Shown here piece after piece: positions 4,347 to 30,516 of a DNA stretch of 34,107 nucleotides. A model generated the notes under the pieces. That model worked only from the letters and a program-made list of their open reading frames with translations, made no database searches and was not told the DNA's origin. This DNA comes from a virus. Its lineage: Duplodnaviria > Heunggongvirae > Uroviricota > Caudoviricetes. Where the stretch lies: IMG/VR virus record IMGVR_UViG_2740892209_000010; one strand, written 5' to 3'. Positions within the stretch are counted from its first letter, which is position 1. Every line of letters begins with the position of its first letter. Both the position numbers and the translations under genes were made by a program.

Positions 4347-6621
4347 AGCCTCCGGGCGTTTTGTCCCTCCGTCAGCATTTGCTGCAGGCACCGGTAAGAC
4401 GTTTACCGGTGCTTATGCATGGAGCGCGCCACGCGAGGCTGTCGGGCGCGAAAGACCCCTTACACGTGACGAGATGCGTCAGGTGCAAGGTGTTTTATCC
4501 ACGATTAACCGCCTGCCTTACTTTTTGCGTTCGCTGTTTACTTCACGCTATGACTACATCCGGCGCAATAAAAGCCCGGTGCACGGGTTTTATTTCCTCA
4601 CATCCACTTTTCAGCGCCGTTTATGGCCGCGCATTGAGCGTGTGAATCAGCGCCATGAAATGAACACCGACGCGTCGTTACTGTTTCTGGCAGAGCGTGA
4701 CCACTATGCGCGCCTGCCGGGAATGAATGACAAGGAGCTGAAAAAGTTTGCTGCCCGTATCTCATCGCAGCTTTTCATGATGTATGAGGAACTCAGCGAT
4801 GCCTGGGTGGATGCGCATGGCGAAAAAGAATCGCTGTTTACGGATGAGGCGCAGGCTCACCTCTATGGTCATGTTGCTGGCGCTGCACGTGCTTTCAATA
4901 TATCCCCTCTCTACTGGAAAAAATACCGTAAAGGGCAGATGACCACGAGGCAGGCATATTCTGCCATTGCCCGTCTGTTTAACGATGAGTGGTGGACTCA
5001 TCAGCTTAAAGGCCAGCGTATGCGCTGGCATGAGGCGTTACTGATTGCTGTCGGGGAGGTCAATAAAGACCGTTCTCCTTATGCCAGTAAACATGCCATT
5101 CGTGATGTGTGTGCACGCCGCCAGGCAAATCTGGAATTTCTTAAATCGTGTGATCTCGAAAACAGGGAAACCGGCGAGCGCATCGACCTTATCAGTAAGG
5201 TGATGGGCAGTATTTCTAATCCTGAAATTCGCCGGATGGAGCTGATGAACACCATTGCCGGTATTGAGCGTTACGCCGCAGCAGAGGGTGATGTGGGGAT
5301 GTTTATCACGCTGACCGCGCCGTCAAAGTATCACCCGACACGTCAGGTCAGAAAAGGCGAAAGTAAAACCGTCCAGCTAAATCACGGCTGGAACGATGAG
5401 GCATTTAATCCAAAGGATGCGCAGCGTTATCTCTGCCGTATCTGGAGCCTGATGCGCACGGCATTCAAGGATAATGATTTACAGGTCTACGGTTTGCGTG
5501 TCGTCGAGCCACACCACGACGGAACGCCGCACTGGCATATGATGCTTTTTTGTAATCCGCGCCAGCGTAACCAGATTATCGAAATCATGCGTCGCTATGC
5601 GCTCAAAGAGGATGGCGACGAAAGAGGAGCCGCGCGAAACCGTTTTCAGGCAAAACACCTTAATCGGGGCGGTGCTGCGGGGTATATCGCGAAATACATC
5701 TCAAAAAACATCGACGGCTATGCACTGGATGGTCAGCTCGATAACGATACCGGCAGACCTCTGAAAGATACTGCCGCGGCTGTTACTGCATGGGCGTCAA
5801 CGTGGCGCATCCCGCAATTTAAAACGGTTGGTCTGCCGACAATGGGGGCTTACCGTGAACTACGCAAATTGCCGCGCGGTGTCAGCATTGCTGATGAGTT
5901 TGACGAGCGCGTCGAGGCTGCACGCGCCGCCGCAGACAGTGGTGATTTTGCGTTGTATATCAGCGCGCAGGGTGGGGCAAATGTCCCGCGCGATTGTCAG
6001 ACTGTCAGGGTCGCCCGTAGCCCGTCGGATGACGTTAACGAGTACGAGGAAGAGGTCGAGAGAGTGGTCGGCATTTACGCGCCGCATCTCGGCGCGCGTC
6101 ATATTCATATCACCAGAACGACGGACTGGCGCATTGTGCCGAAAGCTCCGGTCGTTGAGCCTTTGACTTTAAAAAGCGGCATCGCCGCGCCTCGGAGTCC
6201 TGTCAATAACTGTGGAAAGCTCACCGGTGGTGATACTTCGTTACCGGCTCCCACACCTTCTGAGCACGCCGCAGCAGTGCTAAATCTGGTTGATGACGGT
6301 GTTATCGAATGGAATGACCCGGAGGTTGTGAGGACGCTCAGGGGGGCATTAAAACACGGCCTGAAAACACCAAATCGTCAGCAAAGAAACGGAAGCCCGT
6401 TAAAACCACATGAAATAGCACCGTCGGCCAGACTGACCCGGTCGGAACGATTGCAAATTACCCGTATCCGCGTTGACCTCGCTCAGAACGGTATCAGGCC
6501 GCAACGATGGGAGCTTGAGGCGCTGGCGCGTGGCGCGACAGTAAATTATGACGGGAAAAAATTCACGTATCCGGTCGCTGATGAGTGGTCGGGATTCTCA
6601 ACAGTAATGGAGTGGACATGA
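4336..6621 (+). CDS. A: Rolling-circle replication initiator endonuclease A (HUH superfamily), 761 aa
   Basis: In-frame ATG at 4336 gives 761 aa (P2 A length) beginning MAIKASGRF. HUH motif TPHWHMMLF and double-tyrosine motif AGYIAKYISK read directly from the translation. Confidence 0.9.
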   Translation: MAIKASGRFVPPSAFAAGTGKTFTGAYAWSAPREAVGRERPLTRDEMRQVQGVLSTINRLPYFLRSLFTSRYDYIRRNKSPVHGFYFLTSTFQRRLWPRIERVNQRHEMNTDASLLFLAERDHYARLPGMNDKELKKFAARISSQLFMMYEELSDAWVDAHGEKESLFTDEAQAHLYGHVAGAARAFNISPLYWKKYRKGQMTTRQAYSAIARLFNDEWWTHQLKGQRMRWHEALLIAVGEVNKDRSPYASKHAIRDVCARRQANLEFLKSCDLENRETGERIDLISKVMGSISNPEIRRMELMNTIAGIERYAAAEGDVGMFITLTAPSKYHPTRQVRKGESKTVQLNHGWNDEAFNPKDAQRYLCRIWSLMRTAFKDNDLQVYGLRVVEPHHDGTPHWHMMLFCNPRQRNQIIEIMRRYALKEDGDERGAARNRFQAKHLNRGGAAGYIAKYISKNIDGYALDGQLDNDTGRPLKDTAAAVTAWASTWRIPQFKTVGLPTMGAYRELRKLPRGVSIADEFDERVEAARAAADSGDFALYISAQGGANVPRDCQTVRVARSPSDDVNEYEEEVERVVGIYAPHLGARHIHITRTTDWRIVPKAPVVEPLTLKSGIAAPRSPVNNCGKLTGGDTSLPAPTPSEHAAAVLNLVDDGVIEWNDPEVVRTLRGALKHGLKTPNRQQRNGSPLKPHEIAPSARLTRSERLQITRIRVDLAQNGIRPQRWELEALARGATVNYDGKKFTYPVADEWSGFSTVMEWT

Positions 6622-7073
6622 TGGCAAAAATTCACGAGGTAAAGCTGCACGCAAAATATTTCGACCTTGTGCTGGAAGGAAAGAAACGCGCAGAGTTTCG
6701 GAAAAATGACCGTAATTATGAGCGCGGGGACACGTTGATTTTGCATGAATGGGGGCAGGGTGTGTATACGGGGCGAAAGGTTGAAGCCCGGATAACAGAT
6801 GTTACTGACCTGTCAGACTGGCTGGAAGATTATGTCTTGCTAAGTATTGAGCTGCTTAATACAGGCGCATATGAGATTGTGAACTGGAAAGAACTTAGTG
6901 AGCGTGGTCTGTTATTCAGAATTAATCATGAAATTATGCATAAGCTCGGCCTTGCTGTTATGTATGAACCAGAGACGGGAATGTCTGGCGGGGCAATGGT
7001 TGCCACGGATGGAGCATGGAACTATTCAGATGAACAGATGGAGCGTGCACAGCAAAACGGGTGGCTTGGATAA
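6618..7073 (+). CDS. ASCH/PUA-like (DUF3850-like) protein, P2 orf91 position
   Basis: ATGATG at 6618 overlaps the stop of A and has a GGAGTGG RBS. N-terminal MAKIHEVKLHAKYFDLVLEGKKRAEFRKNDR resembles the DUF3850/ASCH fold family (from memory). Confidence 0.6.
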   Translation: MMAKIHEVKLHAKYFDLVLEGKKRAEFRKNDRNYERGDTLILHEWGQGVYTGRKVEARITDVTDLSDWLEDYVLLSIELLNTGAYEIVNWKELSERGLLFRINHEIMHKLGLAVMYEPETGMSGGAMVATDGAWNYSDEQMERAQQNGWLG

Positions 7074-7279
7074 TGCACAGAATACCAGGCGAGATACCGC
7101 ACCATAAAACTAAAAATATCAAGCTGATGGCTATTGTTCAGCGTTTACAGCGGATTATGGTCAACGAAAATCTGACGCCCGATGAGCTAGTCGGGTGTGC
7201 CGAAATAGTCCGGGATAATTACGGGCGGTTTAACTATATCGGTCAGTCCAGAGTTGCGCCACCACCACGCAGACGATAG
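7073..7279 (+). CDS. Small hypothetical protein (68 aa), translationally coupled to the preceding gene
   Basis: TAATG stop-start overlap at 7071..7075; basic C-terminus; followed by an 11-bp perfect hairpin. No recognisable motif. An alternative start is at 7127. Confidence 0.3.
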   Translation: MHRIPGEIPHHKTKNIKLMAIVQRLQRIMVNENLTPDELVGCAEIVRDNYGRFNYIGQSRVAPPPRRR

Positions 7280-7289
7280 ATAACGCCGC

Positions 7290-7350
7290 CAGTCGTGAAA
7301 CTTGTTTTCAGGGCTGGCGGCGTTGAACAACGAGTGAAGCGAGGCGTTAG
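7290..7350 (+). repeat. Cassette leader repeat, copy A (~61 bp)
   Basis: Ungapped alignment by eye with 8262..8322 gives 46/61 identities (~75%). Shared blocks include tgaaacttg, ttggcgg, gttga and gttag. Confidence 0.6.
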
Positions 7351-7508
7351 TTGACATTCATATTTTTACTGCGTTGGTGCTGTTTTTTGACGGTTGAAAG
7401 GAGTTATCTCGGAGAGCTAAAGCTAACAACTTACAAATATTCAAAAGTAAGCTTCCTGTTGCTAACATAAGGTCGATTTTTTATGTGGATGATGCAAAAA
7501 GGATAGCT

Positions 7509-8240
7509 ATGGATACTATAATCGCTTTTCTATCACTCGCTTTTTTTGTTGCTTTTTTCATCGGGTTAATCAAGCCATCACTGGTGCGAATGCCAAGCCG
7601 CAAACGTGCAAGTGCGGTTTATCTCGGAGGAGGTTTTGTATTGAGCATAATTGGTTCAATACTCTATCCAACAGAAAAAAGCCAGCCAGTTGCTAAAACT
7701 GAAACATCAACCGTTGTAGAACACCAAGTCCAAAAAACATTCGAATATGGTGAAAAAACACTCAAGGAATATCGGAGCGAGCCAAAGAAAACTCGACACG
7801 ATATTGTGAATAGTTACATTGACTTTAAGAAAGTTCCAGTCACCGCATCAGATGCATTTTATGCCTGCATGAGTGAGTATACATTTACCAAAGATGATGA
7901 GTTGAAACTCGGTGATGTTCTTGGGTGGTGCTTTAATGATTATGAAAATGACCCGAGTTCACTAAATAATAAAATCAATCTTGATACATTTCAGAGTAAT
8001 TTTAGTGGTTGGGATGGTTCTTATCGTCCATTGGAAAAACTAATTAAAGATAATATGAACGATGATTCATCTTATAAACATGTATCAACGGTATATCATT
8101 TAGTTTTGAATAAAGACCCGCACGCCATTGTGAAAACGACGTTTCGCGGCACTAATGCTTATGGTGGCATGGTCAAACAGACTGTAGCAGCGCGAGTTGA
8201 CGTGCGAACGGGTGAGATCGATTCAATACTCGACAATTAA
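7509..8240 (+). CDS. Accessory cargo protein 1: predicted membrane protein with two N-terminal TM helices and a ~190-aa C-terminal domain of unknown function (243 aa)
   Basis: ATG at 7509 with AAGGA RBS at 7497..7501 (the ORF track starts at an upstream GTG, 7485). Hydrophobic stretches TIIAFLSLAFFVAFFIGLI and AVYLGGGFVLSIIGSILY. Strongly AT-rich relative to the phage backbone. Sits in the P2 tin/old position between replication genes and cos. Confidence 0.75.
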   Translation: MDTIIAFLSLAFFVAFFIGLIKPSLVRMPSRKRASAVYLGGGFVLSIIGSILYPTEKSQPVAKTETSTVVEHQVQKTFEYGEKTLKEYRSEPKKTRHDIVNSYIDFKKVPVTASDAFYACMSEYTFTKDDELKLGDVLGWCFNDYENDPSSLNNKINLDTFQSNFSGWDGSYRPLEKLIKDNMNDDSSYKHVSTVYHLVLNKDPHAIVKTTFRGTNAYGGMVKQTVAARVDVRTGEIDSILDN

Positions 8241-8261
8241 ATAATATAGTGACAACTCCGT

Positions 8262-8322
8262 CAGTGATGAAACTTGCTTTTAGTCTTGGCGGGGTTGAGC
8301 AATGAGTCTTGCAAGGTGTTAG
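8262..8322 (+). repeat. Cassette leader repeat, copy B (~61 bp)
   Basis: Homologous to 7290..7350 (~75% identity). Its 3' end supplies the AAGGTG RBS (8313..8318) for the gene starting at 8324. Confidence 0.6.
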
Positions 8323-8323
8323 C

Positions 8324-8980
8324 ATGCGTAGAATGGAAGCTGCTTGGACGTGGGGTATTCATATGAATTTAAAAATTTTCGGCATAATTGTCCTTTCTGC
8401 TTTGATGTTCGTTTTAGGTTTTTTTCTCGGTGGTTTTAATTGGGAATGGGCTGATAAGAATTATGCAGGTGAGGTGGCGTTGTGGAGTATGTTAGGAGGG
8501 TGGTTATCCGCAATTGCAACTCTGTTTGCCGTGTTGGTTTCATTATATATGGCGTATCAAGCTACTCAGAATGAGATTGAAAAAATCAGGGTTACTCATG
8601 GAGTAAGTATGAGTGTCACTCATGACAATGAGTTAAGTTGTAATCTCATTATTCAGAACTTGAGAAATATGAAAGTGAATATTACTGGTGTTTTTTTGTC
8701 TCTAGGTAAATCATCAGGTAAGTACTCTTTGGATAAAGTAATTGACAATCGTAATATAACGCTTTCATATAAAGGTGAAACAGAAAAGGTACAATTTGTA
8801 ATCCATTCTGGGTATATTTGGTGGTCAATGTATAAATTATTCGATATGGATAAGAACATAGGTTTTGAAAAGGGTAAGATCTTGATAACAACCAACCTCA
8901 ATACATATAAATTTGATTTGCCAAAAGAATATTTAAGAGCTTTTGAGAAAGCTTATTCGGAGTATCAGACAAAAAAATAA
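8324..8980 (+). CDS. Accessory cargo protein 2: predicted membrane protein with two N-terminal TM helices and a ~130-aa C-terminal domain of unknown function (218 aa)
   Basis: ATG at 8324 six nt after AAGGTG. Hydrophobic stretches LKIFGIIVLSALMFVLGFFLGGF and WLSAIATLFAVLVSLYMAY. AT-rich. Lies immediately upstream of cos. Confidence 0.75.
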   Translation: MRRMEAAWTWGIHMNLKIFGIIVLSALMFVLGFFLGGFNWEWADKNYAGEVALWSMLGGWLSAIATLFAVLVSLYMAYQATQNEIEKIRVTHGVSMSVTHDNELSCNLIIQNLRNMKVNITGVFLSLGKSSGKYSLDKVIDNRNITLSYKGETEKVQFVIHSGYIWWSMYKLFDMDKNIGFEKGKILITTNLNTYKFDLPKEYLRAFEKAYSEYQTKK

Positions 8981-8987
8981 TGAGCTG

Positions 8988-9009
8988 CATGCAAAAGGTG
9001 CATGTTTTT
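8988..9009 (+). terminator. Putative intrinsic terminator after cargo gene 2
   Basis: Short stem catgc (8988..8992) / gcatg (9000..9004) with loop aaaaggt, followed by ttttt (9005..9009). Overlaps a longer AT-rich palindrome (8988..8996 with 9006..9014). The stem is weak. Confidence 0.3.
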
Positions 9010-9109
9010 GCATGTGCTAAGTTCACTGGTTTTGTGTATATCGCTTCAGATCTAGCGTGGTTCCGGGGAGGGCATGCAACTGCATTAAAACCGCTCCATG
9101 AAGCGGGCG

Positions 9110-9128
9110 GGCGAGGCGGGGAAAGCAC
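9110..9128. other. cos site (19-nt cohesive-end sequence)
   Basis: ggcgaggcggggaaagcac read at 9110..9128. It matches my recollection of the P2 cohesive end and sits where P2 has cos, between the accessory region and portal gene Q. Confidence 0.7.
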
Positions 9129-9297
9129 TGCGCGCTGGCGGTGGTGCTGATTTTATTTTTTCAGCGTCTGAGCGCGTCGTGATGGCGTTTAGATTGTTCG
9201 CCGGGGCGTTGGTGTGTCTGCGGGATGTTTTGTACGGTGGTGAGCGTGTGAGGGCGTGATGACAGGGTGTAAAAAAGCCGCCCGCAGGCGGCGATGT

Positions 9298-10332
9298 TCA
9301 GCCGTTGTCAGTGTCCAGTGAGTAGTTTTTAAAGCGGATGACCTCCTGACCGAGCCAGCCGTTTATCTCGCGGATCCTGTCCTGTAACGGGATAAGCTCA
9401 TTGCGGACAAAGACCTTTGCCACTTTCTCAATATCACCCAGCGACCCGACGTTCTCCGGCTTGCCGCCCATCAACTGAAAGGGGATGCGGTGCGCGTCCA
9501 GCAGGTCAGCGGCGCTGGCTTTTTTGATATTAAAAAAATCGTCCTTCGTCGCCACTTCACTGAGGGGGATAATTTTAATGCCGTCGGCTTTCCCCTGCGG
9601 GGCATAGAGAAACAGATTTTTAAAGTTATTGCGGCCTTTCGACTTAACCATGTTTTCGCGAAGCATTTCGATATCGTTGCGATCCTGCACGGCATCGGTG
9701 ACGTACATGATGTATCCGGCATGTGCGCCGTTTTCGTAATACTTGCGGCGGAACAGCGTGGCCGACTCATTCAGCCAGGCAGAGTTAAGGGCGCTGAGAT
9801 ATTCCGGCAGGCCGTACAGCTCCTGATTAATATCGGGCTCCAGCAGGTGAAACACGGAGCCGGGCGCGAAGGCTGTCGGCTCGTTGAAGGACGGCACCCA
9901 CCAGTAAACATCCTCTTCCACGCCACGACGGGTATATTTTGCCGGTGAGGTTTCCAGTCTGATGACCTTACCGGTGGTGCTGTAGCGCTTTTCCAGAAAC
10001 GCATTACCGAACACCAGAAAATCCAGCACAAAGCGGCTGAAATCCTGCTGGGAAAGCCACGGGTGCGGGATAAACGTTGAAGCCAGAATATTACGTTTGA
10101 CGTAAATCGGTGAGCTGTGATGCACGGCAGCACGCAGACTTTTTGCCAGACCGGTAAAGCTGACCGGCGGCTCATACCATCTGCCGTTACTGATGCATTC
10201 GACGTAATCCAGAATGTCACGGCGGTCGAGTACCGGCACCGGCTCGCCAAAGGTGAATGCCTCCATTTTCGGGGCGATGGCGGTCATGGTTTTTGCCGCA
10301 GGTTGCGGTGTTTTCCCTTTTTTCTTGCTCAT
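9298..10332 (-). CDS. Q: Portal protein Q, 344 aa
   Basis: 344 aa equals P2 Q; minus strand, first gene after cos; start overlaps the stop region of P. Confidence 0.9.
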   Translation of the reverse strand: MSKKKGKTPQPAAKTMTAIAPKMEAFTFGEPVPVLDRRDILDYVECISNGRWYEPPVSFTGLAKSLRAAVHHSSPIYVKRNILASTFIPHPWLSQQDFSRFVLDFLVFGNAFLEKRYSTTGKVIRLETSPAKYTRRGVEEDVYWWVPSFNEPTAFAPGSVFHLLEPDINQELYGLPEYLSALNSAWLNESATLFRRKYYENGAHAGYIMYVTDAVQDRNDIEMLRENMVKSKGRNNFKNLFLYAPQGKADGIKIIPLSEVATKDDFFNIKKASAADLLDAHRIPFQLMGGKPENVGSLGDIEKVAKVFVRNELIPLQDRIREINGWLGQEVIRFKNYSLDTDNG

Positions 10333-28076: not shown

Positions 28077-30516
28077 CAATGTAAAATTACAGGTATTGCT
28101 CAGGGCTGTTGACCAGGCATCCCGCCCGTTTAAATCCATCCGTACAGCGAGCAAGTCGCTGTCGGGGGATATCCGGGACACACAAAAATCACTGCGCGAG
28201 CTGAACGGTCACGCATCCCGTATTGAGGGATTTCGCAAGACCAGCGCACAGCTCGCCGTGACTGGTCATGCACTTGAGAAGGCACGGCTGGAAGCCGAAG
28301 CCCTTGCCACACAGTTTAAAAATACCGAACGTCCGACCCGTGCTCAGGCGAAAGTGCTGGAATCCGTAAAGCGAGCGGCGGAGGACTTACAGGCGAAATA
28401 TAACCGCCTGACGGATTCCGTTAAACGCCAGCAGCGGGAGCTGGCCGCTGTGGGAATTAATACCCGCAATCTTGCACATGATGAGCAGGGACTGAAAAAC
28501 CGTATCAGTGAAACCACTACACAGCTTAACCGTCAGCGTGATGCGCTGGCGCGTGTCAGTGCGCAACAGGCAAAACTTAACGCAGTAAAACAGCGTTATC
28601 AGGCCGGAAAGGAACTGGCCGGAAATATGGCCTCGGTGGGCGCTGCCGGTGTGGGGATTGCGGCGGCGGGAACGATGGCCGGAGTTAAGTTGCTGATGCC
28701 CGGTTATGAGTTTGCGCAGAAAAACTCAGAATTGCAGGCCGTGCTCGGAGTGGCAAAAGACTCCGCCGAAATGGCCGCGCTCCGCAAGCAGGCGCGCCAG
28801 CTCGGCGATAATACCGCCGCCTCGGCGGATGATGCGGCCGGTGCGCAGATTATCATTGCGAAAGCGGGTGGAGATGCTGCGGCTATTCAGGCGGCAACGC
28901 CGGTCACGCTGAATATGGCACTGGCGAACCGCCGCACGATGGAAGAAAACGCCGCCCTGCTGATGGGGATGAAATCCGCCTTTCAGCTTTCAAACGATAA
29001 GGTCGCTCATATCGGGGATGTTCTCTCCATGACGATGAACAAAACTGCCGCCGATTTTGACGGCATGAGCGATGCGCTGACCTATGCCGCACCTGTGGCA
29101 AAAAATGCCGGTGTCAGCATTGAAGAAACCGCCGCAATGGTCGGGGCGCTGCATGATGCAAAAATTACCGGTTCAATGGCGGGGACGGGAAGCCGTGCCG
29201 TGTTAAGTCGCCTGCAGGCACCGACGGGAAAAGCATGGGATGCACTCAAAGAGCTTGGCGTGAAAACCTCAGACAGCAAGGGGAATACCCGGCCAGTATT
29301 TACCATTCTGAAAGAAATGCAGGCCAGTTTTGAGAAAAACCGGCTCGGTACTGCCCAGCAGGCTGAATACATGAAAACTATTTTCGGGGAGGAGGCCAGC
29401 TCAGCCGCCGCTGTGCTGATGACTGCCGCCTCAACCGGAAAGCTGGACAAACTGACCGCTGCGTTTAAAGCCTCAGACGGAAAGACCGCAGAGCTGGTAA
29501 ATATCATGCAGGACAACCTCGGCGGTGACTTTAAGGAGTTTCAGTCCGCTTATGAGGCGGTGGGGACTGACCTGTTTGACCAGCAGGAAGGCGCACTGCG
29601 TAAGCTCACGCAGACGGCCACAAAGTATGTGTTAAAACTCGACGGCTGGATCCAGAAAAATAAATCACTGGCGTCAACCATCGGCATTATTGCCGGTGGT
29701 GCACTGGCGCTGACTGGCATCATTGGTGCCATTGGCCTCGTAGCCTGGCCGGTTATCACCGGCATCAATGCCATCATCGCGGCAGCAGGCGCAATGGGGG
29801 CAATCTTCACGACGGTTGGCAGTGCCGTTATGACGGCCATCGGGGCGATTAGCTGGCCGGTTGTGGCTGTGGTGGCCGCCATTGTCGCCGGGGCGTTGCT
29901 TATCCGTAAATACTGGGAGCCTGTCAGCGCATTCTTTGGCGGTGTGGTTGAAGGGCTGAAAGCGGCATTTGCGCCGGTGGGGGAATTGTTCACGCCACTT
30001 AAACCGGTGTTTGACTGGCTGGGTGAAAAGTTACAGGCCGCGTGGCAGTGGTTTAAAAACCTGATTGCCCCGGTCAAAGCCACCCAGGACACACTGAACC
30101 GTTGCCGTGACACGGGCGTCATGTTCGGGCAGGCACTGGCTGACGCGCTGATGCTGCCGCTTAATGCGTTCAACAAACTGCGCAGTGGTATTGACTGGGT
30201 ACTGGAAAAACTCGGTGTCATCAACAAAGAGTCAGACACACTTGACCAGACCGCCGCCAGAACTCAAGCCGCCACGTATGGCAGCAGTGGTTATATTCCG
30301 GCGACCAGCTCTTATGCAGGCTATCAGGCTTATCAGCCGGTCACGGCACCGGCTGGTCGCTCTTATGTAGACCAGAGTAAAAACGAATATCACATCAGCC
30401 TTACGGGTGGTACTGCGCCGGGGACACAGCTTGACCGCCAGTTACAGGATGCGCTCGAAAAATACGAGCGGGATAAACGTGCGCGCGCCCGTGCCAGCAT
30501 GATGCATGACGGTTAA
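28069..30516 (+). CDS. T: Tail tape measure protein T, 815 aa
   Basis: 815 aa equals P2 T; long Ala/Gly-rich, partly hydrophobic central region typical of tape measure proteins. Confidence 0.9.
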   Translation: MSNNVKLQVLLRAVDQASRPFKSIRTASKSLSGDIRDTQKSLRELNGHASRIEGFRKTSAQLAVTGHALEKARLEAEALATQFKNTERPTRAQAKVLESVKRAAEDLQAKYNRLTDSVKRQQRELAAVGINTRNLAHDEQGLKNRISETTTQLNRQRDALARVSAQQAKLNAVKQRYQAGKELAGNMASVGAAGVGIAAAGTMAGVKLLMPGYEFAQKNSELQAVLGVAKDSAEMAALRKQARQLGDNTAASADDAAGAQIIIAKAGGDAAAIQAATPVTLNMALANRRTMEENAALLMGMKSAFQLSNDKVAHIGDVLSMTMNKTAADFDGMSDALTYAAPVAKNAGVSIEETAAMVGALHDAKITGSMAGTGSRAVLSRLQAPTGKAWDALKELGVKTSDSKGNTRPVFTILKEMQASFEKNRLGTAQQAEYMKTIFGEEASSAAAVLMTAASTGKLDKLTAAFKASDGKTAELVNIMQDNLGGDFKEFQSAYEAVGTDLFDQQEGALRKLTQTATKYVLKLDGWIQKNKSLASTIGIIAGGALALTGIIGAIGLVAWPVITGINAIIAAAGAMGAIFTTVGSAVMTAIGAISWPVVAVVAAIVAGALLIRKYWEPVSAFFGGVVEGLKAAFAPVGELFTPLKPVFDWLGEKLQAAWQWFKNLIAPVKATQDTLNRCRDTGVMFGQALADALMLPLNAFNKLRSGIDWVLEKLGVINKESDTLDQTAARTQAATYGSSGYIPATSSYAGYQAYQPVTAPAGRSYVDQSKNEYHISLTGGTAPGTQLDRQLQDALEKYERDKRARARASMMHDG

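Follow-up and report, generated by a model that had tools for sequence, protein, structure and literature searches.

The closest described counterpart of one of the two genes considered here is orf97 of coliphage 186. According to the 186 record (U32222), orf97 (29604-30335) closes an SOS operon, in which it follows the antirepressor gene tum and is transcribed from the LexA-repressed promoter p95, and the note to its coding sequence reads "expression from plasmid blocks 186 infection". A paper on Salmonella prophages refers to tum and orf97 as forming the SOS operon of 186 and gives orf97 no function; a full-text literature search returned nothing on Orf97 function beyond this citation. P2 carries tin and old in a slot between its replication genes and cos that varies among P2-like phages and that Rousset et al. 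(2022, Cell Host Microbe 30:740) describe as the P2 defence hotspot. In their Table S5B they list systems #12 (210 occurrences) and #30 (119 occurrences) as separate entries, each marked '2 TM' (two transmembrane helices) and without a Pfam domain. The sequences of both are absent from the sheets of cloned or tested systems and stand in the catalogue only, and Table S5A includes the exact four-gene arrangement analysed below. We found this arrangement in a stretch of viral DNA of 34,107 nucleotides (nt) (IMG/VR record IMGVR_UViG_2740892209_000010; hereafter the window), in which two adjacent genes, gene 1 and gene 2 (Table 1), lie between the replication module and cos. A preliminary description, made from the sequence alone, had proposed the pair as a candidate undescribed defence or exclusion module.

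Judged by protein comparison, gene 1 is a full-length orthologue of coliphage 186 orf97, with 190 of 243 residues identical to Orf97 (AAC34191; 78%) in a gapless, full-length alignment (E = 9e-152). It also matches phrog_3403 over residues 1-243 of 243 (E = 6.9e-144), and no function is assigned to PHROG 3403. The Orf97 family comprises at least 158 clusters (90% identity) across Enterobacterales, nearly all of exactly 243 amino acids (aa) and all named 'hypothetical'. Gene 1 lies between replication gene A and cos, as Orf97 does in P2/186-like phages, and has the architecture of the family: about 243 aa, an N-terminal hairpin and a C-terminal domain with two cysteines and the motif GWDGSYRPLEK. 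Gene 1 is all but identical to the representative of Rousset system #12 (94% class), and gene 2 to that of system #30 (94-99% class). The word 'undescribed' can therefore not be kept, since gene 1 is so close to a protein with a recorded infection block and both genes are listed in Table S5B; the genes are already catalogued, current understanding is not overturned and the locus is less novel than had been hoped. Taken as a whole, we read it as a P2-type cargo slot with two separate cassettes, gene 1 encoding an envelope superinfection-exclusion protein and gene 2 an independent exclusion or abortive-infection protein, and we put the probability of this reading at roughly 55%.

Hydropathy analysis (19-residue segments, Kyte-Doolittle > 1.6) locates two hydrophobic segments in gene 1, at residues 3-21 and 34-52, and none after about residue 75. 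The AlphaFold2 model (mean predicted local distance difference test score (pLDDT) 85.8) shows a helical hairpin and a folded domain, with the hairpin at about residues 3-52, a disordered linker at 56-74 and a helical and four-strand beta domain at 85-243. The N-terminus reads MD-, and the loop between the helices consists of 15 residues, KPSLVRMPSRKRASA. Since this loop has a net charge of +5, the positive-inside rule predicts that it is cytoplasmic and that the C-terminal domain is periplasmic. The C-terminal domain is the most conserved part of the Orf97 family (mean identity 68% versus 31% for the linker). Residues C120, C141, W168, Y172, R173, P174 and L175 are invariant in a 51-member alignment; Cys120 and Cys141 are the only two cysteines, both in the C-terminal domain, and an invariant block surrounds GWDGSYRPLEK.

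Gene 1 would thus be an inner-membrane protein whose C-terminal domain, about 170 residues long and with two invariant cysteines, faces the periplasm, and it may act as a superinfection-exclusion protein at the cell envelope. Most likely an incoming P2/186-like phage would be halted while its genome crosses the inner membrane. We favour superinfection exclusion because a phenotype is recorded for 186 Orf97 and because the conserved domain is predicted to be periplasmic. This proposal builds on the orthology, on the phenotype recorded for the orthologue and on the sequence features behind the topology, all given above, and the blocked step is what we infer from them.

In order to see whether the two genes belong together, we mapped Orf97, gene 2-like (g2-like) proteins, Tum, DUF3850, A and the portal gene in 80 viral contigs with Orf97 homologues and 27 with g2-like proteins. 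Orf97 occurs in two contexts. In the P2-type context (21 loci) it is preceded by a DUF3850 gene and a small open reading frame (ORF), Tum is missing and the proteins are 92-100% identical to gene 1; in the 186-type context Tum lies upstream in every locus and identity to gene 1 is 76-81%. A portal gene follows downstream in 78 Orf97 loci. The slot between the two is empty in 11 of these 78 (a gap of about 500 nt, as in 186), contains a g2-like gene in 20 (100% down to 24% identity) and has other content in 47, mostly one of 14 unrelated gene clusters. Judged only by eye from their translations, these other cargos include DUF262-like, reverse-transcriptase-like and HNH-like proteins, and one cargo cluster resembles the sequence of Rousset system #11. 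Gene 2 itself is thus one of at least 14 unrelated cargos that can occupy the slot behind the boundary element described below. Such candidate defence cargos, together with the description of the slot as a hotspot by Rousset et al. (2022), favour a defence setting.

The pairing of the two genes is not obligate: 58 of the 78 Orf97 loci lack a g2-like gene, and in four P2/186-like loci a g2-like gene occurs without Orf97, following A (L006), Tum (L014) or a small ORF (L015, L016). Because each gene occurs without the other, we favour the view that genes 1 and 2 are independent single-gene cassettes that often stand side by side. The preliminary description had named this as the alternative to a single two-gene module, and the locus comparison favours that alternative. 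The separate entries in Table S5B and the unequal numbers of complete E. coli genomes with each gene, given below, also speak for independence. The two genes are likely to be co-transcribed, since a terminator scan found no terminator-like site between them and one directly after gene 2.

A single cooperating system, for example a periplasm-facing sensor (gene 1) that signals to a cytoplasm-facing membrane effector (gene 2), would explain why the genes are neighbours on one strand without an intervening terminator and why their predicted topologies are opposite. Of 5,426 complete E. coli genomes, 87 contain gene 1; gene 2 is found in 29, each of which also contains gene 1. In addition, a g2-like gene is the commonest single cargo after Orf97 (20 of 78 loci), in P2-type and 186-type phages and even at 24-32% identity. 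However, Orf97 is followed by an empty slot in 186 and 10 other loci and by unrelated cargo in about 47, g2-like genes stand directly after orf72, Tum or A where Orf97 is missing, and distant g2-like genes occur in phages with no Orf97 homologue within the fetched flanks. Also, the 186 record reports a block of infection by plasmid-borne Orf97, although 186 has no g2-like gene. We therefore regard a two-gene system as quite improbable and treat the genes as independent cassettes in what follows.

Gene 2 matches phrog_16957 over its full length (E = 1.4e-99), and PHROG 16957 again has no assigned function. Homologues of gene 2 in E. coli, Salmonella, Klebsiella, Citrobacter and Enterobacter fall into only 23 clusters at 90% identity. 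When 1.84 billion representatives were searched with a profile, 120 family members were retrieved at E <= 0.001, none of them named and none with a Pfam domain, and a Pfam scan of 62 family members likewise found no domain; a collection of species-representative genomes contained one g2-like locus. Spurious ORFs were rejected as an explanation, since genes 1 and 2 both belong to conserved families. Most homologues of gene 2 begin at the equivalent of M14 (ATG 8363), but ATG 8324 has the better Shine-Dalgarno sequence (AAGGTG), which lies inside copy 2 of the boundary element described below.

By the same hydropathy threshold, gene 2 has hydrophobic segments at residues 18-36 and 56-74 and none later, and its AlphaFold2 model (mean pLDDT 74.0) shows a helical hairpin and a folded beta-sandwich domain. 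For both genes, hydropathy, AlphaFold2 and RefSeq annotation agree with the preliminary description of two same-strand ORFs, each with two N-terminal transmembrane helices followed by a soluble domain. In addition to its full-length homology to the family, gene 2 contains the hairpin motif EVALWSMLGGWLS. The family hairpin (EVALWSMLGGWLSAxATLxAV), which shows small-residue packing motifs, keeps 46-60% identity where the soluble domain keeps 16-18%, and this pattern is the opposite of that in gene 1. Tentatively, the N-terminus of gene 2 would lie inside, the short acidic loop outside and the domain (net charge +6) in the cytoplasm. Gene 2 would most likely be a second, independent membrane-acting exclusion or abortive-infection protein, with the hairpin as its working part and the variable domain conferring specificity.

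The same pattern bears on the possibility that one or both proteins are abortive-infection effectors, which would kill the cell by depolarising its inner membrane or making it permeable, while the genome is not kept out. A conserved hairpin with small-residue packing joined to a hypervariable soluble domain, as in gene 2, fits an effector plus a sensor; the slot also holds other candidate defence cargos, and Rousset et al. (2022) state that small membrane proteins encoded in defence loci are commonly taken to be suicide effectors. In gene 1, however, the most conserved part is the soluble, probably periplasmic domain and not the hairpin, which suits binding better than pore formation, and neither protein resembles any PADLOC membrane effector model. 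We consider killing of the cell unlikely as the general explanation of the locus and retain envelope exclusion for gene 1.

Distant g2-like genes (197-257 aa, with the motif PVLSMLGGWVSG) were also found in L021-L033, which are IMG/VR contigs mostly of about 56-60 kb and with high G+C content (GC). They lie within head-morphogenesis modules of unrelated phages, with the portal gene on one side and scaffold or major capsid genes on the other. Because these members lie in such modules, the g2 family, as delimited by homology, extends beyond the P2/186 hotspot.

The position of these distant genes between portal and scaffold/capsid genes would also fit a third explanation, namely that genes 1 and 2 serve the phage's own cycle or host fitness, as an SOS induction function, in the control of lysis or particle release, or as an anchored periplasmic chaperone-like factor. 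Orf97 of 186-type phages is quasi-conserved and co-transcribed with Tum from a LexA-repressed promoter, and would thus be made at induction and not in the quiescent lysogen; furthermore, about a quarter of P2 hotspots hold non-defence cargo such as partition systems (Rousset et al. 2022). The HdeA/HdeB-like helical fold of the periplasmic domain of gene 1, discussed below, points the same way. Against this, the only effect on record for Orf97 is that it blocks infection by 186. A normal P2 lysis cassette (holin, endolysin, LysB/LysC) lies elsewhere in a near-identical prophage of E. coli O177:H21, and we therefore rejected genes 1 and 2 as lysis genes. Finally, a wider P2-like query of 2.3 kb matches 2,161 complete E. 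coli genomes, and since only 87 of these carry gene 1 and 29 carry gene 2, P2-type phages cannot depend on either gene. As an account of both genes, a function in the phage life cycle or in host fitness appears improbable.

Several observations weigh against our reading of the locus as two exclusion cassettes. The source of the Orf97 phenotype is a single GenBank note, which gives no mechanism, and that gene 2 acts in defence or exclusion is conjectured from its position and conservation pattern; of the role suggested in the preliminary description, the part concerning the gene 1 family therefore has a recorded phenotype behind it, and the part concerning gene 2 does not. The topologies of both proteins are predictions from the positive-inside rule, and in gene 2 the charge differences are small, so that its topology is weakly supported. 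PADLOC-DB 2.0 (including Old-type and PD-T4/T7/lambda systems) gave no match for gene 1 and, as the best match for gene 2, a chance-level Cas4 (E = 0.03). Pfam-A and NCBIfam (including superinfection-exclusion, holin and lysis families) gave nothing above cut-off for either gene, in keeping with the earlier statement that no catalytic domain is recognisable. At the level of fold, the periplasmic domain of gene 1 resembles the helical fold of HdeA/HdeB and the beta-sandwich of gene 2 resembles ApaG/DUF525, in both cases with moderate Z and over part of the domain. The distant g2-like genes in head modules could have a role in the phage's own cycle.

Expression weighs on the same side. Unlike 186 orf97, gene 1 lacks tum, a LexA box and a predicted promoter. 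The promoter scan found no sigma-70-like promoter in 7172-7792 and none upstream of gene 1, a search for LexA boxes found no similar site in 7038-10114 (the window-wide total being at chance level), and Tum homologues are missing upstream of gene 1 both in the window and in all 21 P2-type loci. Gene 1 is therefore not a member of a LexA-repressed tum-orf97 SOS operon, which is a feature of the 186 context and not of the protein.

Further searches add little to the fold-level likenesses. No sequence signal for HdeA/HdeB membership of gene 1 was found with Pfam or a PDB profile search, nor any for ApaG/DUF525 membership of gene 2. The profile of the gene 1 family retrieved nothing from PDB sequences, and the g2 profile gave a single marginal match (E = 0.013) to an archaeal pilin-like chain, which has the common helix-plus-beta-sandwich shape and into which we read nothing more. 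A Foldseek search of viral structures with gene 1 gave one match at E < 0.001, to an uncharacterised protein, and otherwise short matches to small phage lipoproteins.

The 'leader repeats' that the preliminary description assigned to each gene are a 72-nt direct repeat with 75% identity between its two copies. The repeat itself is real, but it delimits the slot and is no dedicated leader of these genes. The element is about 70 nt long, with the consensus AACGCCGCCGGTGCTGAAACTYGYTTTCAGTGCTGGCGGGGTTGAACAACGAGC-NNN-GCGAGGCGTTAG. A profile built from the two copies finds it in 96 of 114 sequences (113 fetched loci and the window), in every case at the point where the backbone meets the variable slot; this point lies after the small ORF in P2-type phages and after Orf97 in 186-type phages. 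In 186 it occupies 30344-30412 of U32222 (L001 3769-3840), with the orf97 stop on one side and terminator t95b on the other. Immediately 3' of the element end ...GCGAGGCGTTAG the phages diverge completely. Homology of the window to Wphi and P2SIAC10, both of which carry the element, stops at about 7352; canonical P2 (AF063097) has no boundary element. The records OU784549.1 and NC_070904.1, named 'Peduovirus P2', represent isolate P2SIAC10 and not canonical P2, and the cargo of P2SIAC10 at this locus is a BspRI-type methylase and two hypothetical genes, not tin and old. Comparisons by the name 'P2' may mislead for this reason.

The first 45 nt of the element form a stem-loop with compensatory changes: 97% of alignment cells are paired and 7 of 16 pairs vary on both sides, values that none of 500 shuffles reaches, and slid controls are 31-55% paired. 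Copy 1 is predicted to fold as RNA with an energy of -34.1 kcal/mol (z = -5.0), and copy 2 with -21.9 kcal/mol (z = -2.2). An Rfam search of 6900-9400 found no family, and a role as intrinsic terminator was rejected, as the stem lacks a following T-run on both strands. Towards its 3' end the element has a GAGG/AAGGTG motif (8310-8326; L009 and L010, about 4990-5005), and several phages have the first ATG of their cargo 2 nt beyond the element. The element may thus supply a ribosome-binding site for the cargo, such as AAGGTG for ATG 8324. It may also anchor recombination, stabilise RNA or provide a site for its processing, or act as an expression adaptor. The element explains the sharp left edge of the hotspot, and may help to explain how cargo is swapped and expressed.

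Both the host phage and the island can be placed by comparison. A prophage beside yegR/yegS in E. coli O177:H21 is 99.9% identical to window positions 7000-9300. Its gene order is integrase, C-like repressor, cox, A, DUF3850/ASCH gene, small ORF, two hypothetical genes, portal Q, terminase P, then capsid and lysis genes, which is the order of P2; by gene order and identity we assign the window to a P2-type (Peduovirus) prophage of E. coli. Positions 7351-8985 are its cos-proximal variable cargo slot, with replication genes on one side and cos on the other. The segment is AT-rich, as had been described, with a GC of 37% against 53% in the flanks (gene 1, 0.388; gene 2, 0.342; 7353-9000, 0.371; gene A, 0.535; portal gene, 0.535; whole window, 0.515). 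The linear record of phage S164 terminates at window position 9127. RefSeq annotates a 53-aa hypothetical protein at 9099-9260 (+), which spans cos and is probably no real gene.

On the left, gene 6621-7073, which follows A, encodes a DUF3850/ASCH and DUF7415 protein, 74 residues of which align with P2 Orf91 and form its counterpart here (96% identity over these 74 residues). The small ORF 7061/7073-7279 (68-72 aa, phrog_11386) is conserved across P2-type phages. The phrog_11386 ORF was also seen downstream of Orf97 in some 186-type loci (L005, L074, L089 and L092). Within the untranslated stretch upstream of gene 1, only the last 32 nt or so, which include an AAGGA ribosome-binding site, resemble 186, and a megablast match starts at 7477. 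On the right, homology to 30 loci of the 186 type restarts at 8986, at the hairpin and T-run that open this flank and that are also present in 186, there downstream of t95b; homology to P2-type loci restarts only at about 9074. Because of these different points of resumption, 7477-9073 looks like a 186-type block (Orf97, element, cargo and hairpin) recombined into a P2-type backbone. The best explanation for the second copy of the element is that such a block brought its own: copy 1 would belong to the P2-type backbone, and copy 2 would travel with orf97, as in 186.

Table 1. Features of the cos-proximal slot and its borders (window coordinates)
Feature	Position	Strand	Remarks
Boundary element, copy 1	7279-7350	+	direct and inverted repeat; directly after the stop of ORF 7061/7073-7279; ends the P2-type backbone
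Untranslated stretch upstream of gene 1	7351-7508	+	conserved in Orf97-bearing P2-type phages
Gene 1	7509-8240	+	243 aa; alternative GTG start at 7485; same coordinates in RefSeq annotation of near-identical prophage
Boundary element, copy 2	8251-8322	+	somewhat degenerate; directly after gene 1, as in 186-type phages
Gene 2	8324-8980	+	218 aa, or 205 aa from ATG 8363; same coordinates in RefSeq annotation of near-identical prophage
Terminator-like hairpin and T-run	8987-9013	+	GCATGCAAAAGGTGCATGTTTTTGCATG; from terminator scan; directly 3' of gene 2
cos cohesive-end 19-mer	9110-9128	+	GGCGAGGCGGGGAAAGCAC; identical to P2 cosR; right limit of the island

In 186-type loci L055-L113, cargo lies downstream of the LexA-controlled tum-orf97 operon, after the boundary element, and replaces the short segment that in 186 holds t95b. 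Because of this position, some hotspot cargo of 186-type phages may be expressed with the SOS response. A broader proposal, possible but doubtful at present, is that g2-like proteins are an unrecognised, widespread class of single-gene membrane exclusion or abortive-infection proteins, in which the hairpin (MLGGW[LV]SG) would be the effector and the hypervariable beta-sandwich would read a phage-specific signal. In the same proposal, the element after tum-orf97 would serve as a recombination anchor or as an expression adaptor (stem-loop and Shine-Dalgarno sequence), the latter putting cos-proximal defence cargo under SOS control. The gene 2 family is uncharacterised and shows a pattern of effector plus variable domain, and it merits inclusion in a defence screen. 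For gene 1, the analysis links the nearly forgotten infection block by 186 Orf97 to a frequent, unannotated cargo of the P2 hotspot and suggests a testable, topology-based site of action; if confirmed, gene 1 would add an envelope-level exclusion protein to the repertoire of the P2/186 hotspot.

Among known systems, Tin and Old of P2 share with genes 1 and 2 the slot between replication genes and cos and the logic of lysogenic conversion. Tin (253 aa) and Old (586 aa, an ATPase with a TOPRIM nuclease) are encoded on the opposite strand in P2, unlike genes 1 and 2. BLASTP of genes 1 and 2 against Tin and Old gave nothing significant (best E 3.8-10), and the ORF list contains no ORF of the size of Old. 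The earlier observation that the content differs from that of P2 therefore holds, and a tin/old variant was rejected. The likeness to HdeA/HdeB and ApaG/DUF525 is one of shape and gives no evidence of family or function; unlike these proteins, genes 1 and 2 tether their domains to the membrane, and in gene 1 a four-strand sheet is added to the domain.

T4 Imm, P22 SieA and HK97 gp15 are small phage-encoded inner-membrane exclusion proteins that prevent entry of the superinfecting genome. Gene 1 does not belong to their families by sequence or fold (Pfam and structure searches), but it is like them in size, membrane anchoring and proposed mode of action. The closest comparison remains that with 186 Orf97. 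Gene 1 differs from it in context, having no tum, no p95/LexA box and no t95a or t95b, lying in a P2-type backbone after a DUF3850/ASCH gene, and being followed by a further cargo gene. It shares with 186 Orf97 the two-helix hairpin, the conserved C-terminal domain, the position between A and cos and the element of about 70 nt downstream; the recorded exclusion phenotype is that of 186 Orf97, and would extend to gene 1 by orthology.

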